Assembly: GCA_965208805.1 (NCBI GenBank)
Contig: OZ242355.1
Location: 3,194,906-3,258,905 of the forward strand
DNA length: 64,000 bases
Source of the DNA: Acidimicrobiales bacterium
GTDB lineage: Bacteria > Actinomycetota > Acidimicrobiia > Acidimicrobiales > Bin134
Direction: 5' to 3'
The notes beneath the pieces were generated by a model, which worked only from the letters and a program-made list of their open reading frames with translations, searched no databases and was not told the origin of the DNA. How positions within the stretch are numbered: position 1 is the first letter of the stretch; every line of letters begins with the position of its first letter. Position numbers and translations under genes: made by a program. Of the stretch, positions 44,609-52,631 are shown one piece after another.

Positions 44609-45250
44609 GTGGACGCATCTGCTGACGAGGCCGACCAGTCCTTGACGTGGCGGGGATCTCTGTTGGCCCGGCTGCCGGGCGGCCGGCGCAGCTATTGGAT
44701 AGTGGTGGCCGCGGCCGCGGCGGTCACCGGGCTGGTGGTGGCCGCCATAGCCGCCATGGCCGGAGGCGGCCCGTCATTGGGGGAGCTCACTCCGGTGATC
44801 GTGGCCACCCAGACCATCGAAGCCGGAGATCAGCTGAGCGAGCAGAACACCGAAGCCCGGCGGCACCCTGCCCTCACCCTGCCAGCCGGAGCGGTGGCCG
44901 CCCTGGTCGGCGACGAAGTGGCGTCGGCTGCTCTCCATCCCGGTGATGTGGTGACCGCGGCCCGTTTGGGGGGACTGCCCATCGGGGATCGGACCGAAGT
45001 AGCCATTCCCGCCCACACCGCTTTGCCCCCGCTGGCCCCCGGCGACCTCGTGGACGTGCTGGTGACCCTGCCCCTGCCCGGCGACGGCGGTGCCCAGTCC
45101 CAAGCCACGCTCACCGTCGCCACCGCGGCAGTGGTCACCGACACCGCCGAACACGCCGTCACCATCGCGGTCACCACCCAAGAGCTGCTCCCGGTGGCCT
45201 CGGCGGTGATCCAGGGCTCGATCACCCTGGCCCTGGTGCAGTCGGGGTGA
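44609..45250 (+). CDS. SAF-domain protein, CpaB/RcpC-like (Flp pilus assembly)
   Basis: N-terminal TM (YWIVVAAAAAVTGLVVAAIAAMA), then a SAF-like region VIVATQTIEAGDQLSEQN...LPAGAV. No other tad/cpa genes follow; mobile DNA follows instead. Confidence 0.5.
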   Translation: MDASADEADQSLTWRGSLLARLPGGRRSYWIVVAAAAAVTGLVVAAIAAMAGGGPSLGELTPVIVATQTIEAGDQLSEQNTEARRHPALTLPAGAVAALVGDEVASAALHPGDVVTAARLGGLPIGDRTEVAIPAHTALPPLAPGDLVDVLVTLPLPGDGGAQSQATLTVATAAVVTDTAEHAVTIAVTTQELLPVASAVIQGSITLALVQSG

Positions 45251-45275
45251 ACAGCGGAACCGCAGAGGCTGGTCA

Positions 45276-45289
45276 CCCCCCCCCCCCCC
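45276..45289. repeat. homopolymeric C14 tract
   Basis: 14 consecutive C, counted directly, at the left edge of the IS110 region. A C7 tract sits at 46771-46777 on the other side. Confidence 0.95.
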
Positions 45290-46770
45290 TTTACGTTGTT
45301 GGGTGGCCTCTGGCGTGGGAGTGTTGGGGGCTGGTTGCTCGCCGCGGCGGGTAGGGCTTTGTCCCCCTGTCGTTTGAGGGCTCGGGGGGTGGTGCCGCCC
45401 GCTGCGGGGGGCGTCTGGGACCTCTGACAGGGACGTGTCCGCGGGTTCGGCCCGCAGGGCTTTGCAAAGAGTGGTTGAGGCGCAGGCGCCTGGGGCTTCC
45501 GAGTTGTTTGTTCCCGGACCTGGAGGGCCCGACATGCCACAGACCGATCACGCGGCCGGCGAGGTGTTCGTCGGCATCGACGTCGCCAAGGCGGACCATT
45601 GGGCGCACGCGGTGGCCGCGGGCGGCAAGGAGTTGTTCTCGCGGGCGGTGGCCAACGATGAGGCCGCTATCGACGCTTTGATTGACGAGGCGACCGGCTG
45701 TGGTGCTGTGGTGCTGGTCATCGACCAGACGGGGTCGGCGGCGTTGTTGCTGTTGGAGGCGGCGGCGAACAGGGGCGTGCCGGTGGCCTATGTGCCGGGG
45801 CTGGTGATGCGCCGGGCCGCGGATCTGTACGCGGGGGCGGCCAAGACCGACCCCAAGGACGCGTTCGTGTTGGCCGACTACGCCAGCCGCAACTCCGACC
45901 GGCTCCAGCGGGCTGCGCCCGCCGACGAGCTGCTGGCGCGGCTGAGGGTGCTCAACGGGCGAGACGCCGATCTGGCCGCCGACGCCACCCGGGCCTCCAA
46001 CCGGCTCAGGGACGCCTTGTTGGCCGTATGCCCGCCGCTGGAGCGGGCGGTGGGAGACCACCTCGCCGCCACCGCCGGGCTGCGCCAGGCCCTCGTGCGC
46101 TGGCCGACGCCGACCGCGCTCCACCGGGCGGGAAGAGCCCGCATCCGGACCGCGATCGCCCGGCGCAACCCCCGCAAAGCCGAATCCCTCGCCGACGCGA
46201 TCTGCGCGGCGCTCAAATCCCAGACCATCACCGTGGCCGCCGAGGCCTCCTGGGGCGAGGCCATCGCAGACCTCGCCTCGGACCTGGACCGCATCGCAGC
46301 CCGCCGCCGCCAGCTCCAAGGAGACATCGAGGAAGCGTTCATGGAACACCCGCTGGGAAAAGCCCTGTCCACAATGTGCGGGTTCGGCCCCCGAACCGGC
46401 GCCCGCGCCCTCGCTGAGATCGGCGACCCCCACCGCTTCGACAACGGATCACGCCTCGCCTCCTACGCCGGGCTCGCCCCCGTCGACTCCCAATCAGGCC
46501 GCAGCCACACCACCCGGGCCAGCCGCCGCCACAACCACCGGCTCAAAAACGCCATGTTCCAAGCCGCCTTCACCGCCTACCGATACGACCCCCACGCCGC
46601 CGCCTACTACCGGAAAAAACGGGCAGAAGGCAAAAAGCACAACCAAGCCATCACCGCCCTCGCCCGCAAACGCTGCAACATCGTACTCGCCATCCTCAAA
46701 ACCCAAACCCCCTACCAACCCCCCCACACCGAAAACCTGCCCCAAGCGGCTTGACAACACCACAGGGACA
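45290..46770 (+). mobile_element. IS110-family insertion sequence (boundaries approximate)
   Basis: Transposase 45534..46754 with a 244-nt non-coding left end and only 16 nt after the stop. The element is bracketed by C-runs. No inverted repeats, as expected for IS110. Confidence 0.6.
45534..46754 (+). CDS. IS110 family transposase/recombinase
   Basis: ATG 45534 after GGAGGG. VFVGIDVAKADHWAHAV (DEDD N-terminal domain) and C-terminal GFGPRTGARALAEIGDPHRFDNGSRLASYAGLAPVDSQSG. Confidence 0.85.
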   Translation: MPQTDHAAGEVFVGIDVAKADHWAHAVAAGGKELFSRAVANDEAAIDALIDEATGCGAVVLVIDQTGSAALLLLEAAANRGVPVAYVPGLVMRRAADLYAGAAKTDPKDAFVLADYASRNSDRLQRAAPADELLARLRVLNGRDADLAADATRASNRLRDALLAVCPPLERAVGDHLAATAGLRQALVRWPTPTALHRAGRARIRTAIARRNPRKAESLADAICAALKSQTITVAAEASWGEAIADLASDLDRIAARRRQLQGDIEEAFMEHPLGKALSTMCGFGPRTGARALAEIGDPHRFDNGSRLASYAGLAPVDSQSGRSHTTRASRRHNHRLKNAMFQAAFTAYRYDPHAAAYYRKKRAEGKKHNQAITALARKRCNIVLAILKTQTPYQPPHTENLPQAA

Positions 46771-46777
46771 CCCCCCC

Positions 46778-47210
46778 GGAGCTTTAGCCGAAGAGAATGT
46801 GCCCGCTGGGCCTCCTGACACGCCTCACAGGGCACCTCGCCCCGATAACGATGCGCCCGATAGCCCCGAAACTCGCCACATCGCTCATCGGGCGACGGCG
46901 GCAGCCGTCCCCACCTATCGCCGTGCTCAGCCCGCAACCTCGCCACCCGCGCCCAATGCCGGCGAGTCACATCCTTGCTATGGGCTGCCAAGCAATCCCC
47001 ACACGCCGCCTCACCCCGGCGAATGTGCGCCTTGTACCCCGCCTCCGTGCCGCACAACGCCTCCTGCCGCGGCAACACACCCGAAGCCCGAAGCCTCGCT
47101 CGTCCCTTTGCCGCCCACGCCGCCAAACACAACTCACACGCAGGCTCTCCCCGATACCGATGCCGCTGATACCCCGCTGGCGTCCCACACGGCTGAACCT
47201 CACGAACCAT
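46778..47210 (-). CDS. hypothetical protein with 3x CGxxGYxxHxxRGExxCxxC motif; 3' end reads into IS110
   Basis: From ATG 47210: MVREVQPCGTPAGYQRHRYRGEPACELC, LCGTEAGYKAHIRRGEAACGDC, RCGEFRGYRAHRYRGEVPCEAC. The track ORF (46494..47297) continues antisense into the transposase, so the native C-terminus is unclear. Confidence 0.45.
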
Positions 47211-47491
47211 CAGCGTCCCTGTCCTTGATCCAACGGCTTGCCGGCCACAACTAACTCCAGCGCGACGCAAACTCTGTGGGAGACAACAAGTCAACAAACT
47301 GGACCGAATGCAATCTCAGTCCAGAGGACTGGCCTATACCCACTCCAATCGCATTTTCATTCGCTGAAACGATCTCCCCACAAGACCTTCACCACTTCCT
47401 TCCACGCCAACCTCTTTGCCCTTTTTCTCCAAATCTGCTCCCAACCTCCAGAACAGAGCAATAACGCACGAGATATCACCCTTGACGGCCT

Positions 47492-47866
47492 TTAGCCAGC
47501 CCTACGTACCCGTCGCCAAAACCCGGCGAATCGCCCATCGGCCGCCCGGTCCTCATCACCCAGCATATCCTTCAACTGCTCCTTCCAAGCCAAGTCCCGA
47601 TCCCGATCACGCAACACCTGCTCCCAACCACCTACCCGAAACGCCAACACCGCCCCGGCCATGAAGGCAGCCTGGCTCGCAACAAGGGCAAAGACGGCTA
47701 TACCAACACCCAATAGGAACCATGCCAAAGCGAAGTCTCCGTACGTTACGACCCCGACCGCTACAGGCACTACCACCACGACCCAGAACAGGCCAAACAG
47801 GTGTCGGATCCAGTTGCGTCTGCGGTCTGTCAGTTTTTTTGTGTAACCGGCCGTGATGGTTTTCAT
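47492..47866 (-). CDS. membrane-protein fragment; first 14 codons supplied by the IS256 end (possible C-terminal piece of the disrupted surface protein)
   Basis: ATG 47866-64 overlaps the IS256 transposase stop (ATGA). Codons 1-14 lie inside the IS (>=47824). The rest encodes TM-like LFGLFWVVVVVPVAVGVVTYGDFALAWFLLGVGIAVFALVASQAAFMAGAVLAF. Confidence 0.4.
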   Translation of the reverse strand: MKTITAGYTKKLTDRRRNWIRHLFGLFWVVVVVPVAVGVVTYGDFALAWFLLGVGIAVFALVASQAAFMAGAVLAFRVGGWEQVLRDRDRDLAWKEQLKDMLGDEDRAADGRFAGFWRRVRRAG

Positions 47867-49228
47867 TTGATGTGGTCGGCGATCCTGTCGCCGTAGTGGA
47901 CGGTCAGTGTGTTCAGTATGGTCTTCCAGCCGTTGGTCTTGCCGGTGAGGTTGCTCCGGTTCTTGTGCTTGGCGGTTGCGACAAGGTAGAGGATCTTCAT
48001 GGCGGCCTGCTCGTTGGGGAAGTGGCCTCGGTGGCGCACGGCTCGTCGGAATCTGGCGTTGAGGCTCTCGACGGCGTTGGTGGTGTAGACCACCCGGCGC
48101 AGCTCGGCGGGGAACTCCAAAAACGGTGTGAACTCGTTCCAGGACTGCCGCCAGGAGCGGATCATGGCCGGGTAGGTGTCCTCCCAGTCTTGGGCGAACG
48201 CCTCGAAGAGCGTCTCGGCGGCCTCTGTTGTGGGGGCGGTGCAGATCTCCCGCATGGACTTGGTTATGGGCCCCCAGTGCGTCTTGGAGGCGTAGCGCAG
48301 GCTGTTGCGGACCATGTGCACCACGCAGGTCTGCACCACAGCCTCGGGCCAGGTCACGCGGATCGACTCGGGCAGGCCCCGCAGCCCGTCGCAGCACACG
48401 ATCAAAGCGTCGGCCAGGCCCCGGTTCCGGAGCTCGCCCAGCATGGCCGCCCACTGCTTGGCGCCCTCGCCGCCCGTTGGTCCCAGCCACAGGCCCAAAA
48501 CATCGCGCTCTCCGGCCAGATCCACGCCTATGGCCACGTAAACGGGCCGGTTGGCGACCTGCGAGTCGCGGACCTTGACGGTGATCGCGTCGATCAAAAG
48601 CACCGCATAGACCGGCTCTAGGGGCCGGTTCTGCCACACGGCCATGTCGGCCACGATCTCGTCGGTGATCTTCGAGATCGTCTCCCGGCTCACCGACGTG
48701 TCGTAGATCTCTTCCAGGTGCGCCTGGATCTCCCCGGTGGTCAGCCCCTTCGCATACAGCGAGATCACGTTGCCCGACAGCCCGTCCAAGCGGCGCTGGT
48801 GCTTGGGAACCGTGACGGGCTCGAACGTGCCCGCCCGGTCGCGCGGCACCCGCAGATCGACCTCGCCGATCTCGGTGGTGACCCGCTTGGGCGACGAGCC
48901 GTTGCGCGAGTTCCCCGACCCGCGGCCCTCCGGAGCGTGGCGCTCATAGCCCAGGTGGTCGGCCATCTCGACCTCCAACCCGGTCTGCAGCACCTGGCGC
49001 ACCAGCCCCGTCAACAGGCCGCCGTCGCCGGTCAGCTCCACCCCCTCAGAGCGGGCGCGCTCCACCAGAAGCTCGGCCCAGTCCTGCATCGCCGCCTCAC
49101 CGGCGACCTCGTTGCTCGCCGGCGCAGCCGGCACATTCTGATCAGTCACAGACATGATCCTCCCCGGCCCGCAACACCAAACCGCGGACCCTCAGATCAC
49201 GCCCGATACACAAAATTCCTGACAGACC
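47824..49228 (-). mobile_element. IS256-family insertion sequence, 1405 bp
   Basis: Terminal inverted repeats GGTCTGTCAGTTTTTTTGTGT (47824-44) and the reverse complement of 49208-28, GGTCTGTCAGGAATTTTGTGT (18/21 identical). Single transposase gene. No target-site duplication seen (flanks gcgtctgc vs cctcggtc). Confidence 0.85.
47863..49155 (-). CDS. IS256 (mutator) family transposase
   Basis: 430 aa. CCDGLRGLPESIRVTWPEAVVQTCVVHMVRNSLRY and NAVESLNARFRRAVRHRGHFPNEQAAMKILYL are family signatures. Confidence 0.9.
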   Translation of the reverse strand: MSVTDQNVPAAPASNEVAGEAAMQDWAELLVERARSEGVELTGDGGLLTGLVRQVLQTGLEVEMADHLGYERHAPEGRGSGNSRNGSSPKRVTTEIGEVDLRVPRDRAGTFEPVTVPKHQRRLDGLSGNVISLYAKGLTTGEIQAHLEEIYDTSVSRETISKITDEIVADMAVWQNRPLEPVYAVLLIDAITVKVRDSQVANRPVYVAIGVDLAGERDVLGLWLGPTGGEGAKQWAAMLGELRNRGLADALIVCCDGLRGLPESIRVTWPEAVVQTCVVHMVRNSLRYASKTHWGPITKSMREICTAPTTEAAETLFEAFAQDWEDTYPAMIRSWRQSWNEFTPFLEFPAELRRVVYTTNAVESLNARFRRAVRHRGHFPNEQAAMKILYLVATAKHKNRSNLTGKTNGWKTILNTLTVHYGDRIADHIK

Positions 49229-50559
49229 CCTCGGTCCAGAAGTTGTCGTCGAGGTCTGGCAGTGGGGAGTGCCAGGCCAGGTCAGGGGCGTTGGGGTCAT
49301 CGGGGCCGGGGCAGGTGCCGGCGGTGGTCTTGCAGTGCCGGTGGGGCGTGGTGGTCGGATCGCCATCTGCGTCCATGTGCAAATGACTCGTGAGACTGTG
49401 GTCAATTTGGGCAGGATGGCTCAGCTTCTTGGCGGTGGCCTCGTCAAGGCGAACGGCCAGCGGCTCGGTCCAGTGGAAGGTACAGGTGCGGGTCCAGCCG
49501 TCGTCGTCATCGTTACGCCTGGTCTCCGTACAGTTGTCACGGCCCAGAGTCTGATCTTTGGTGTCGTCTGGCATGTATCGCAGCACTTGAGGGGCGATCC
49601 ACTGCCGGCCGGGATTGAGGTTCACCCAAGACCCGTTCGGGCTGGCCCAATGGGGGCTGACGTTCAATGCGCGGTTTGCGGTGAGCAAGACGGGGGCAAG
49701 CGGGTCGCATGTGACGGTTTCGGCGGCTGTCCAGCCGGACCATTTCTGGCCGGTTCGGGCGCGGGCTCTGATCCTGATTTTGTAGGTCTCGCCCTCCCAT
49801 CGTTGGGCGTAGACCTCGGTGCCGGGCCCCTCGTAGTTGATGCTCTCCTCGCCCGGCGCGGTGTTCTTCAGGTCGTAGCGGTCGGCGCCGTTGACCGGGT
49901 TCCATTTCAGGTGTACTACGCCGTGGCTGTTGCACGACGCCGTGGTGAAGCCCGTGGGCTTGAACACCGCGCACTTGCTCGCGGTCACCGGCAAGGTCCA
50001 AGCCGACTCGCGGTCCTCGCCCGATGCGACGCCCGCCGGGGAAGGCGCGACGCGCACCCGCACCCGGTGGGCCTTGTTTGAGTGGGCCCCATCCCACGAG
50101 TAGGAATAGGACTCCGCCCTGCCAGGCAGCGACCGATAATTGACTGAGCCGACGACTGCGCCATCCACCTCCACATCGAACTGGAGGCCCAGCGGCACCA
50201 GGGGCCCCTGGTGTTTCCACGACACCGACAGCACGCCGCCGGCTGAGCACGCCGCCGACATGTTGGCGGGCGCAGTCAGCGGCGAGCACACCGCCACAGC
50301 GGAGGCGACCCAGCCGGACTGCTTGTCGCCGGGATAGCGGGCCTGCACCTGCACAGAGTATTCCCCGGCCTCGCCAACCCGCTGGGTGGCGCCGGACACC
50401 GCGGACAGGGTCCCGTAGCCAATGAAGTCCATACCGTTGAGCCACCGCCAGTAGGCCCTCGCTCCAGCTGGCAGGGTCCACGACGCCGACAGCGCGAAAC
50501 CGCCAGCTGCTTGCGTACACTCCAAGCCCACCCCAGAAGGCTCCTCAATCACCGGTGTC

Positions 50560-50705
50560 GGCGTCGGCTTGGGCTTGGGCTTGGGCTTGGCGGTGGCAGT
50601 CGGTTTGGGCGCGGCAGTCGGCGTCGGCGTCGGCTTGGGCTTGGGCTTGGGCTTGGCGGTGGCAGTCGGTTTGGGCGCGGCAGTCGACGTCGGCTTGGGC
50701 ACGGG
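50560..50705. repeat. 60/66-bp tandem repeat encoding a P/K/T/A linker
   Basis: Copies at 50560-50619 and 50620-50685 (the second has an extra ggcgtc), then a partial copy. Encodes TAAPKPTATAKPKPKPKPTPTP twice. Confidence 0.9.
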
Positions 50706-50913
50706 CACGCAGTCGCTGTGGCCCTGCAACTCGGTGCCCGGCCCGCACTCCCCCTCATGAGACTTGGCGCGCTCATGGCACGCCGACCCGTTGTGCGTGT
50801 GCGTAGTTCCCTTACAACTCGCCGGATCGGGCCAGCACGCCCCCGTGGAGGGGTCGAACCGGTCCGCCGGGCACGGCGTCGGGTGTGTGTGGGTTACGGG
50901 GCGGTCCTGCCAC

Positions 50914-51046
50914 TCGTAGTTGAATACGTCCTCGGTCAGCGTCTCATAGTTGAACACCGACCGCTTGCGCGTCTCGTAGTTGAACACGTCCTCGGTCAGC
51001 GTCTCATCGTTGAACACCGACCGCTTGCGCGTCTCGTAGTTGAACG
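50914..51046. repeat. 60-bp tandem repeat (2.2 copies) encoding the EDVFNYETRKRSVFN(Y/D)ETLT unit
   Basis: Copies 50914-73 and 50974-51033 differ at 2 positions. Partial third copy. Confidence 0.9.
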
Positions 51047-51300
51047 ACGGCCTGTTCTCGTAGTTGAACACGTCTTTGTACCCATACACCGGGCGCTCCT
51101 CGTAGTTGAACACGTCCTCGGTCACGGTATAGGGCTTGGGACAGTGCCTGTACGGCCCCCACGGGGTCTGATGCACCACACACGGCGGGGTCACCGTCCG
51201 AGTCCGCGTGAACGGCGCCACCCGCACCCGCTTCACATGCGGGTACACCACCGTGCGGATGGTGAACGGGGCGACGCGAACCCGCACCGTGAACGGCGCG

Positions 51301-51443
51301 ACGCGAACCCGATACTCCTCCAGATACGGCGCCACCCGCACCTTCACCTCCCGAGTGAACGGCGCGACGCGAACCCGTTACTCCTCCAGATACGGCGCCA
51401 CCCGCACCTTCACCTCCCGAGTGAACGGCGCGACGCGAACCCG
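51301..51443. repeat. 66-bp tandem repeat (2.2 copies) encoding YRVRVAPFTREVKVRVAPYLEE; one copy carries the nonsense change
   Basis: Copies 51301-66 and 51367-432 are identical except A51312 vs T51378 (minus-strand TAT Tyr vs TAA stop). Confidence 0.9.
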
Positions 51444-51794
51444 CACCCGCTCGGTCTGCTCATGGGCCGACACCGACGGCCCCACACCCGAAGAAACAAC
51501 CAGCGCCAACCCCACAGCAAACACCGCAAGACTGACGGCCACAACAACAACTCGACGCGTCACGAACGACACGATTAGCTGGAGCAGCGACCGCCCCGAC
51601 AACCCTCAAAGCCCCACCCAATGTGCGAAACCGATGCAGCCTCGCCCATTTCATGCAAGAAACCACCCCATGTTTAGGTTAAAAAATATGTCATATACCT
51701 TGATATGCCAGAAATAATTGGGACAAGAAAGATATGTTACTTGCTCACCTATCGCCTATCTCAGCCACATGTGTGTCCCGGACTCGAATCGCCC

Positions 51795-52631
51795 CTAGCG
51801 AACTGACGAAGCCAACAAGCTGAGCACCAGCAGGGCCGCCAGCACCCGATAAACCGCGAACGGGCCCAAGCTGCGGGTGCGCACCAGAGCTAAAAGGCCC
51901 TTGACTGCTACGAACCCGGTGACGGCGGCCGCCGCCGTGCCCCCTGCGAAAGCGGCCCGGGCATCGGTGGGTATGCCTCCCCAACCGCCGATGTCGATGA
52001 ACTGATAGACGCCGGCCCCCGCGATCACCGGCACGCTCATCAGCATGGCCAACCGGGTGGCGGCCTCGCGATCCAAGCTGAGCAGACGCCCGGCAGTGAT
52101 GATCACCCCCGAGCGCGACACGCCCGGCTGGAGAGAGCAGGCCTGGGCCAAACCCAGCAGCACAGCGTCGCGCACCCCGACGTCATCGGTGGACCGCCGG
52201 CCCTGACGGCGATCGGCCCACCACAGCAGAACGCCGAACACCGCCAGCATCACCGCGGTGAGCCACACCTCGTCGTCGGCCTCGTCGATCACCGACCGGA
52301 GACCCACCCCCACCGCCGCCGCGGGCACGGTGGCCAAAACCAACAGCCAGCCCAGCCGACCCTCGGCGGTCATCGGGGCTCGGCGCCTGACCACCGCACC
52401 AATCCCGTCTCGCACCAGCGCCCACACCTCTTTGCGCAAACAGCCCACCAACCCCACCAATGTGCCCAAGTGGAGGGCCACGTCGAATGCCCTTTCGAGG
52501 TCGTCGTTGCCCTCGAAGTCGTTCCAATCGGCCAGCCAGGGAATGATCTGGAGGTGCCCGCTGGACGACACCGGTAGGAACTCGGTCAGCCCTTGGGCAA
52601 TGCCCAGCAGAATGGCGTGTAAGACCGACAT
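51795..52631 (-). CDS. uppP: undecaprenyl-diphosphate phosphatase
   Basis: MSVLHAILLGIAQGLTEFLPVSSSGHL and PGVSRSG motifs. Confidence 0.85.
   Translation of the reverse strand: MSVLHAILLGIAQGLTEFLPVSSSGHLQIIPWLADWNDFEGNDDLERAFDVALHLGTLVGLVGCLRKEVWALVRDGIGAVVRRRAPMTAEGRLGWLLVLATVPAAAVGVGLRSVIDEADDEVWLTAVMLAVFGVLLWWADRRQGRRSTDDVGVRDAVLLGLAQACSLQPGVSRSGVIITAGRLLSLDREAATRLAMLMSVPVIAGAGVYQFIDIGGWGGIPTDARAAFAGGTAAAAVTGFVAVKGLLALVRTRSLGPFAVYRVLAALLVLSLLASSVR

Follow-up and report, generated by a model that had tools for sequence, protein, structure and literature searches.

The window, by which we mean the whole stretch of 64,000 nucleotides analysed here, is high in GC and carries at 45534-46754 a gene whose product matches PF01548 (E 5.1e-41) and PF02371 (E 1.3e-24), the DEDD RuvC-like domain and the Tnp domain, respectively. 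The protein scored 225.8 bits against the NCBIfam model NF033542, "IS110 family RNA-guided transposase", for which the cut-off is 140, and its matches among PDB chains were ISCro4 (9t56, E 2.1e-12) and IS621 (8wt6, E 1.9e-11). This recombinase gene is preceded by a left end of 245 nt (45289-45533; 244 nt when counted from 45290), with a Shine-Dalgarno-like GGAGG at 45522-45526 upstream of the start codon, and is followed by a right end of only 16 nt (46755-46770). The initial annotation had described this layout, with 244 nt before the gene and 16 nt after it up to a C7 run, and had named C14 at 45276-45289 and C7 at 46771-46777 as the flanks of the element, and both descriptions are confirmed in the sequence. 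Its statement that the 244 nt are without an ORF is loose: a 43-aa ORF at 45296-45427, a GTG-extended frame from 45435 and long antisense frames are listed, none of them supported. The features of the locus are collected in Table 1.

The genome that contains the window (G000, one contig) has one full copy of the element and one PF01548 gene. When 41 related genomes were examined, full-length copies were found at other sites, namely a 99% identical copy in G015 (L007), four 86% identical copies in G018 and an 84% identical copy in G006, and a protein-based scan of species genomes added further elements with 43-75% protein identity whose hosts are Acidimicrobiia, Dehalococcoidia, Chloroflexota and two actinobacterial genera. 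The span common to the full-length copies (99%, 86%, 84% and 70-75% identity) runs from about 45284 to 46777; in all copies the left junction is a C run followed by TTTAC(G/C), and the right junction is ..CTTGACAAC...ACAGGGACA followed by a C run. An inverted-repeat scan of 45150-46900 returned 94 pairs, and a terminal repeat pair was absent from the 25 longest of these. The ends of the element were placed by the guide matches described below and by a relative, L087, which is without the homopolymer. On these comparisons 45289-46770 is a single-copy IS110-group element with a recombinase related to those of ISCro4 and IS621.

Table 1. Coordinates of the element, its predicted RNA and its target in the window
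Feature	Position	Strand	Basis or remark
IS110-group insertion sequence	45289-46770	+	1482 nt, counting the single C common to both junctions (45289 = 46771) once
IS110-family DEDD recombinase, 406 aa	45534-46754	+	Pfam, NCBIfam and PDB matches
Left half of split poly-C target (left target and target core bases)	45276-45288	+	Empty sites of two other copies; left C runs
Right half of target, C7 + GGAG (right target)	46771-46781	+	Guide reverse complement CA-C6-GA; right-junction counts
Left-donor segment of right end, CACAGGGACA, matched by left donor guide	46761-46770	+	Identity with guide; covariation
-35-like TTGACA, overlapping the stop codon	46751-46756	+	20/25 elements examined: TTGACA in 19, TTGACG in L033
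-10-like TACGTT in left end	45292-45297	+	N17 from TTGACA upon end-joining
Predicted bridge RNA (extent of covariance-model match)	45303-45503	+	Model R1, 151.9 bits, E 1.4e-38
5' hairpin	45305-45332	+	Helix 1: both-sided changes in 9/11 pairs (34-sequence alignment)
Closing stem, 5' strand, paired with 45493-45500 and enclosing both arms	45333-45340	+	Helices 2 and 3: both-sided changes in 6/6 pairs
Closing stem, 3' strand	45493-45500	+	34-sequence alignment, helices 2 and 3
Target-binding arm	45342-45407	+	Helix 4: 9/14 pairs compensatory; guides tested against flanks by permutation
Stem of target-binding arm	45342-45357 / 45394-45407	+
Inner hairpin of target-binding arm	45369-45381	+
Left target guide loop, TTTGTCCCCCT	45358-45368	+
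Right target guide and handshake bases, TCGGGGGGTGGT	45382-45393	+
Donor-binding arm	45410-45490	+	Helices 6-8: 13/15 pairs compensatory
Stem of donor-binding arm	45410-45424 / 45477-45490	+
Inner hairpin of donor-binding arm	45437-45460	+
Left donor guide loop, TGACAGGGACGT	45425-45436	+	Against right end: 0/5000 permutations as high
Right donor guide loop, TTTGCAAAGAGTGGTT	45461-45476	+

It had been proposed in the initial annotation that the non-coding left end is a bridge RNA, and folding the left end, searching it with a covariance model and comparing its loops with the flanks and the element ends had been suggested as checks. The minimum free energy of the left end is -123.6 kcal/mol (z = -1.47), and 14 of 200 shuffled sequences were at least as stable; the single-sequence fold is thus no better than chance, and the evidence for structure beyond chance is comparative. 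A search of 44800-47300 against Rfam 15 at E <= 10 gave zero matches, and this release may not hold a bridge-RNA family, but a covariance model of our own (R1; 188 positions and 50 pairs, built from an alignment of 11 relatives) recovers a conserved RNA in the relatives. The consensus of the 11 left ends has a 5' hairpin, a closing stem, two arms and the return strand of the closing stem, where the first arm consists of an internal loop with a small inner hairpin and the second is of like design. In these close relatives 96.5% of the cells pair compared to 40-55% when the partners are slid, and both-sided changes were found in just 5 pairs because the sequences are too alike for much covariation. 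When R1 was run over 151 genomes of the order it found matches in 11, G000 among them, and over 38 sequence sources it gave 34 matches, distant loci included; wherever the start of the recombinase match was located, the RNA match is directly upstream of the recombinase. In the resulting 34-sequence alignment (A4) 94.8% of the cells pair compared to 39.7-47.5% when slid, both-sided changes occur in 38 of the 50 pairs and on each of the five measures all 500 shuffles fall short of the observed value. These pair counts are biased towards the structure, since the alignment was fitted to R1; despite this the margin is large and every helix contributes to it. The comparisons thus support a conserved RNA structure with bridge-RNA architecture in the left end, and the proposal is upheld by this architecture together with the compensatory changes and the loop matches to ends and flanks that are given below. 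Two of the local structures pointed out earlier are present, with corrected positions: the hairpin GCGGG-TTCGG-CCCGC is at 45441-45455 and not at 45445-45461, and the palindrome AGGCGCCT is at 45484-45491, one base away from where it had been placed.

In the available text on IS621 (Durrant 2024, PMC11208160), loop 1 is the target loop and loop 2 the donor loop, and each loop reproduces on its 5' side the top strand of the left half-site and is complementary on its 3' side to the right half-site. Complementarity to the flanks and the element ends was found in both internal loops of the predicted RNA. In the donor-binding loop, in the second arm, the 5' side UGACAGGGACGU is right-end sequence and the 3' side is complementary to the first bases of the left end. 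The stretch ACAGGGAC is identical in the left donor guide (45427-45434) and the right end (46762-46769), and across the family guide and right end change together, as GACAGGGACA, GATGGGGACA, ACAGGAACA, ATTGAGA and ATAGGGAC. In a permutation test on 24 elements the left donor guides scored 213 against their right ends compared to 152.8 +/- 8.1 for the permutations, of which 0 of 5000 were as high; 10 of the 34 rows had been left out beforehand because the right end was not found or fewer than 8 of 10 bases matched, and 2 of the rows included probably have a misplaced right end. As for the right donor guide, in most elements its reverse complement ..CACTTTACG equals the first bases of the left end, and in the window it matches its own left end with one mismatch and a 2-nt bulge.

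In the target-binding loop, in the first arm, the 5' side UUUGUCCCCCU would be the top-strand sequence of the left target, and the 3' side holds the right target guide. The left end has G runs at 45326-45330, 45384-45389 and 45406-45411 for which pairing with the flanking C tracts had been suggested, and this is borne out for the G6 at 45384-45389, which is in the right target guide, but not for the other two, which are in stems. The reverse complement of the right target guide in the window reads CA, six C, then GA, and its CA-C6-G corresponds to the last two bases of the right end (the handshake), the C run and the first flank base. In the available text of Hiraizumi 2024 (PMC11208158), the two bases adjoining the right guides switch to pairing with the opposite partner once strands have been exchanged. 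When the reverse complements of the right target guides were compared with the right junctions, the score was 196 compared to 178.4 +/- 3.9 in permutations (1/5000). Variants of this guide track their own junctions, as seen with CACACCCC (L027, L029), ATTCCCAGTG (L087) and interrupted runs (L036, L088); in L087, which has no homopolymer, the guide matches the junction at 10/10 bases, and in the per-element listing the base just past the C run tends to agree with the guide.

Variation is greatest in the 5' side of loop 1, whose last bases are C3-5 and then U. Where the C run of the left flank is short, the left target guide equals the flank, as with GGAGCCCC (L027), TGGGTCC (L029) and AGCCCCC (L032). 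In the test of left target guides against left flanks (29 elements, with 4 rows whose left end was unrecognised and 1 duplicate left out) the score was 144 compared to 132.0 +/- 4.3 (33/5000), and a stricter anchored measure was weak (16 compared to 10.6 +/- 3.4; 416/5000). In the window the C5 part of this guide matches the flank and the non-C part, UUUGU, does not match the flank GGTCA. The match of the left target guide to the left flank is thus weak, and for the window copy it comes from the C run alone. These loop matches also bear on a different explanation of the left end, namely that it is simply a leader or promoter of the recombinase mRNA with a structure that controls translation and guides nothing. 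Its position directly upstream of the start codon, with the Shine-Dalgarno-like GGAGG, would agree with this, but a leader fails to explain why unpaired loop bases are equal to the ends and flanks and change with them, and it also fails to explain why the structure stops 30 nt before the start codon with the ribosome site outside it. We consider this explanation very improbable.

The target itself was examined at sites where the element is absent. Orthologous empty sites exist for two of the G018 copies, L052 and L008, and both are uninterrupted poly-C. The filled site of L052 reads AATGA C5, element, C7 GCGCC, and the corresponding empty sites read AATGA C15 G in G045 (L069) and C9 in G053 (L072). 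The L008 site is empty in G052 (L096) as TAAG C14 GACCTTCG, and the right junction of L008 is exactly C6 GACCTTCG. Among 27 unique right junctions the run is C6 or C7 in 18, the rest being C5, C8, C10 (twice) and five interrupted runs, but at 28 unique left junctions the number of C ranges from 2 to 18. Therefore, the tracts differ in length but the element keeps a fixed distance of 6-7 bases to their 3' edge, and this is the behaviour expected of a CA-C6-N guide. The C14 and C7 that flank the window copy are, by comparison with these sites, the two halves of one poly-C tract. Run lengths in G000 are bimodal, with 1976 runs of 6, 186 of 7, 5 of 8, 1 of 9 and 3 of 10, followed by one run each of 14, 17, 18, 20, 22, 23 and 25, where the 14 is the left half in the window; adding the right C7 to it would give a tract of about 20 nt, like the other long tracts of G000.

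At two further loci, L051 and L053, the C counts do not sum to the tracts of the relatives. The target of L051 is the end of another repeat that reads GAGCAT C6 TTTGG in 8 of 10 uninterrupted copies and has a one-base variant or C5 in the other two, and the filled site has C7 on both sides with TT on the right; the site of L053 reads CCTGCCCC in relatives. We can only attribute this mismatch to tract instability or homopolymer error. An empty site for the window insertion was not found in 14 relatives that have the left-hand gene, where different DNA follows this gene because the window carries a 6.5-kb insertion there, nor was one found for L007, the two flanks of which map to separate places in G000. 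Among the public runs listed none is recorded as RNA, and the contigs of four runs gave no joints, circle junction or empty-site contig. A literature search on IS110 and homopolymers gave, among the matches listed, no poly-C-targeting IS110 by title or abstract, and the main text of Durrant 2024 (PMC11208160) is without the words "homopolymer", "CCCCC" and "GGGGG", while its supplementary target tables may already contain this family.

The position of the crossover is read from L087, in which the left target guide and the right donor guide meet on the left junction and the left donor and right target guides meet on the right junction, both meetings falling at one 4-nt identity, TTCC. By position, the donor in the window is ..GGGACA, one C, TTTACG, and the target is all C, so that donor (..ACAC|T..) and target have one C in common (45289 = 46771) and differ in its neighbours. 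The right end finishes in ..ACA followed by C, and of 29 left junctions 25 have CC immediately ahead of the left end, 2 have CA, 1 has TT and 1 has CT. A core dinucleotide shared by donor and target and read by four guides was not found, and one position differs in any 2-nt register, be it CA, AC or CT in the donor. Other cores were checked at L051 and L053, namely TT or CT at the C/T boundary and CC with the whole right C run in the donor; these fail at most right junctions or give the promoter described below a 23-nt spacer.

It could be argued that the C run after ...GGGACA belongs to the element, so that the 3' side of loop 1 reads the element's own right end and the crossover is at the C/T boundary. 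The recurrence of C6-C7 at 18 of the 27 right junctions does look like a conserved terminus, and at L051 the repeat has just C6 and TTT, compared to C7 to the left and C7-TT to the right of the inserted element. However, the spacer of the split promoter described below would then be about 23 nt and not 17, the left donor guide would pair at least 8 nt away from the crossover, and the guides of L087 meet at TTCC, the very position at which the C run of the window family begins. In addition, the empty sites are tracts of C9, C14 and C15 whose last six C and flank are the right junction, and the guide tends to agree with the base just past the run. Ownership of the C run by the element is therefore improbable, and we retain the reading in which the right C run is the right half of the target.

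When the ends of the element are joined, TTGACA of the right end and TAnnnT of the left end are separated by N17 in 17 of 25 elements examined and by N18 in 2, across a junction that is itself presumed; in the remainder the -10 is lost in one and the ends are unrecognised in five. The N17 spacer of the window consists of 14 nt of the right end and 3 nt of the left end. Neither a promoter-like nor a terminator-like site was seen in the linear context of the element. If transcription started about 7 nt past the -10, the first base would be at 45303-45305, where the R1 match begins.

The window copy differs from its family in the right donor guide. Compared to its 99% twin L007 and 26 other fully aligned guides it has a T>C change and a 2-nt insertion, so that it reads GCAAAGAG where L007, L008 and L009 read GTAAAG, and among the 30 right donor guides that are fully aligned in A4 a further 24 have GTAA(A/G/C)G or GTAAGG. 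Contigs of runs X5 and X7 have the canonical guide (C>T at 45465 and 2 nt fewer at 45468), and the window form is carried by one run, possibly the source of the assembly. The window copy may thus be impaired in donor recognition. Taken further, this would mean that the RNA family is real and the window copy is a crippled or inactive relic, a fixed single copy whose right donor guide has drifted and recognises its own left end poorly, and the departure from the family form, the canonical guide in the X5 and X7 contigs and the presence of one copy and one PF01548 gene in G000 are in line with it. The recombinase frame, however, is intact over 406 aa, all stems are intact and the R1 score is like that of the twin (151.9 compared to 150.9 bits), and 7 of 8 canonical guide-donor pairs are still possible with a 2-nt bulge, while the right donor guide of IS621 itself pairs discontiguously according to the available text of Durrant 2024 (PMC11208160). 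The lineage has also moved recently, because a 99% identical copy is at another site in another species-level genome. We regard a relic as unlikely, though it is the alternative that deserves the most weight.

Taken together, we hold with considerable confidence, on comparative sequence evidence, that 45289-46770 is an IS110-group element whose left end specifies, over 45303-45503, a bridge RNA of about 200 nt and whose target is poly-C. By analogy with IS621, a probable course of events is that the element excises as a circle and that the joined ends create a TTGACA-N17-TACGTT promoter which would drive the RNA; the recombinase loaded with this RNA would then pair donor and target and exchange strands at the common C. 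The insertion point is set 6-7 bases inside the tract, counted from its 3' edge. We infer the expression of the RNA, its ends and the circle from this analogy. A more tentative suggestion, which we think less likely than not, is that the family is specialised on hypervariable poly-C tracts, measures from their 3' edge by the G6 guide and recombines with a single common base, and that each round of insertion and excision could leave behind, within the tract, an A derived from the donor. Left flanks interrupted by A are found as C6-A-C7 in L008, where the empty orthologue is pure C14, and as C5-A-C5 in L035. If this suggestion is true, the core rule of bridge recombination would be less strict than IS621 has it, and the element would act as an editor of contingency-like homopolymer loci.

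One more bridge-RNA element is not surprising, because bridge RNAs are recent and heavily used and NCBI already labels the family "RNA-guided transposase". The RNA is of a known kind, and the points of interest are the homopolymer target, the reduced shared core and the derived right donor guide of the window copy. The contribution of the case is a natural example, worked through for an uncultured actinobacterial lineage of high GC, in which each of the four guides can be compared with real junctions and with two real empty sites. The homopolymer target and the one-base shared core bear on the strictness of the core and register rules that bridge recombinases obey, and the case also bears on why G000 keeps a handful of C/G tracts of 14-25 nt.

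The closest likeness in design is to IS621, as far as the available texts (Durrant 2024, PMC11208160; Hiraizumi 2024, PMC11208158) describe it. In both, the RNA is in a long left end upstream of an IS110-family recombinase and consists of a 5' hairpin and two stem-loops with internal loops, the logic of the loop sides is the same with the first loop for the target and the second for the donor, two extra bases next to the right target guide agree with the end of the left donor in keeping with the handshake logic, and a -35, here a putative one, is placed in the right end with its -10 in the left end; the recombinases are related (8wt6, E 1.9e-11). Unlike IS621, the target here is a homopolymer of C, so that the target guides (C5 and G6) are mutually complementary over five bases and not two, and donor and target have one C in common instead of the CT dinucleotide. 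The RNA is about 200 nt compared to 177 nt, and the recombinase is 406 aa compared to 328 in the solved IS621 chain. The closing stem around both arms is a feature of the window RNA, and the comparison with IS621 was made on the other points.

Among solved structures the closest in sequence is the ISCro4 transposase (9t56, E 2.1e-12), for which the protein alone was compared. It aligns over both domains, but the identity is low and the first domain aligned weakly (7.3 bits). The seekRNA of the IS1111 group, in the available text of Siddiquee 2024 (PMC11187229), is likewise a target-selecting RNA encoded in a non-coding region of an element with a DEDD transposase. In IS1111 elements, however, the left end is short and the right end long, and the subterminal inverted repeats are long, according to the available text of Durrant 2024 (PMC11208160), whereas here the left end has 245 nt and the right end, where an IS1111 guide RNA would be encoded, only 16 nt, and a terminal repeat pair was not among the 25 longest pairs of the inverted-repeat scan. 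Finally, ISPpu9 and ISPpu10 of Pseudomonas putida, as described in the available texts (PMC12288879; bioRxiv 10.64898/2026.03.19.712850), are IS110-family elements that also insert into one repeated and recognisable genomic sequence, but their targets are REP or conserved intergenic repeats, while in the family described here they are homopolymer tracts.

When compared with related genomes, the window carries about 6.5 kb of extra DNA between the SAF/RcpC-like gene and the BacA gene, and the IS110-group element lies at the left edge of this insertion. In the relatives the convergent BacA gene follows within about 16 nt after the SAF/RcpC-like gene. Also within the insertion are a Mutator/IS256-type transposase and a 716-aa ORF, the latter without a Pfam family.

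Features in and around the insertion, fragments of the element and long homopolymer tracts
Feature	Position	Strand	Remarks
SAF/RcpC-like gene	window 44609-45250		
Extra DNA (~6.5 kb)	window 45251-51788		
IS110-group element	window 45289-46770		
Mutator/IS256-type transposase	window 47863-49155	minus	2.9e-118; inside the ~6.5-kb insertion
716-aa ORF	window 49197-51347	minus	inside the ~6.5-kb insertion
BacA gene	window 51795-52631		convergent to SAF/RcpC-like gene
Terminal stretches of raised depth	window 45268-45385 and 46684-46801		first ~100 nt of left end, last ~100 nt of right end
Solo left-end fragment	L002 1501-1562 = G000:C1:2767873-2767934		62 nt, 91% identity
Solo left-end fragment	L003 = G000:C1:2708685-2708716		33 nt, 94% identity
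Six C or G tracts, 17-25 nt	G000 contig 528444, 1004853, 1744547, 2758595, 2922186, 2962575		

Ends of the element are also found on their own. In the genome that holds the window there are two solo left-end fragments, the longer of which stands after a C7 at the end of a frame that reads ..DRYPPF, a putatively DUF4389-like ending. Related genomes contain many such pieces of the left end, 45-230 nt long, as well as pieces of the right end. In contigs of public runs the summed depth over the termini was 5-10 times that over the recombinase body, which suggests that there are many truncated or related elements with common termini. In the donor-binding arm of two other elements, L028 and L029, a 22-nt unit that includes the left donor guide (CAGGAACATGCACCGT.TGGG) occurs in tandem, three times in L028 and twice in L029.

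The poly-C tract to the left of the element is broken by a single A in two loci, as C6-A-C7 in L008 and as C5-A-C5 in L035, and the orthologous site that lacks the L008 element (L096) is a pure C14 without the A. The A could be the scar of an earlier cycle of insertion and excision that brought in the A of the donor. At the two empty sites orthologous to the L052 insertion (C15 in L069 and C9 in L072) the tract is flanked by a TGA and, a few bases on, by an ATG, which look like a stop codon and the start of the next gene, and therefore tract length could affect the expression of this putative downstream gene. One copy in the related genome G018 (L051) has used as its target the C run of a multi-copy repeat of related genomes (L058-L067; L051 1992-2137) that starts ..GAGCAT C6 TTTGGCCGGTCACC... 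and probably represents the terminus of a different mobile element.

In the whole genome that holds the window, C or G runs of 8, 9 and 10 nt are already rare (5, 1 and 3, respectively), yet besides the window's own tract there are six further C or G tracts of 17-25 nt. These six are candidate empty targets of the element, and may in addition be contingency-like loci themselves.
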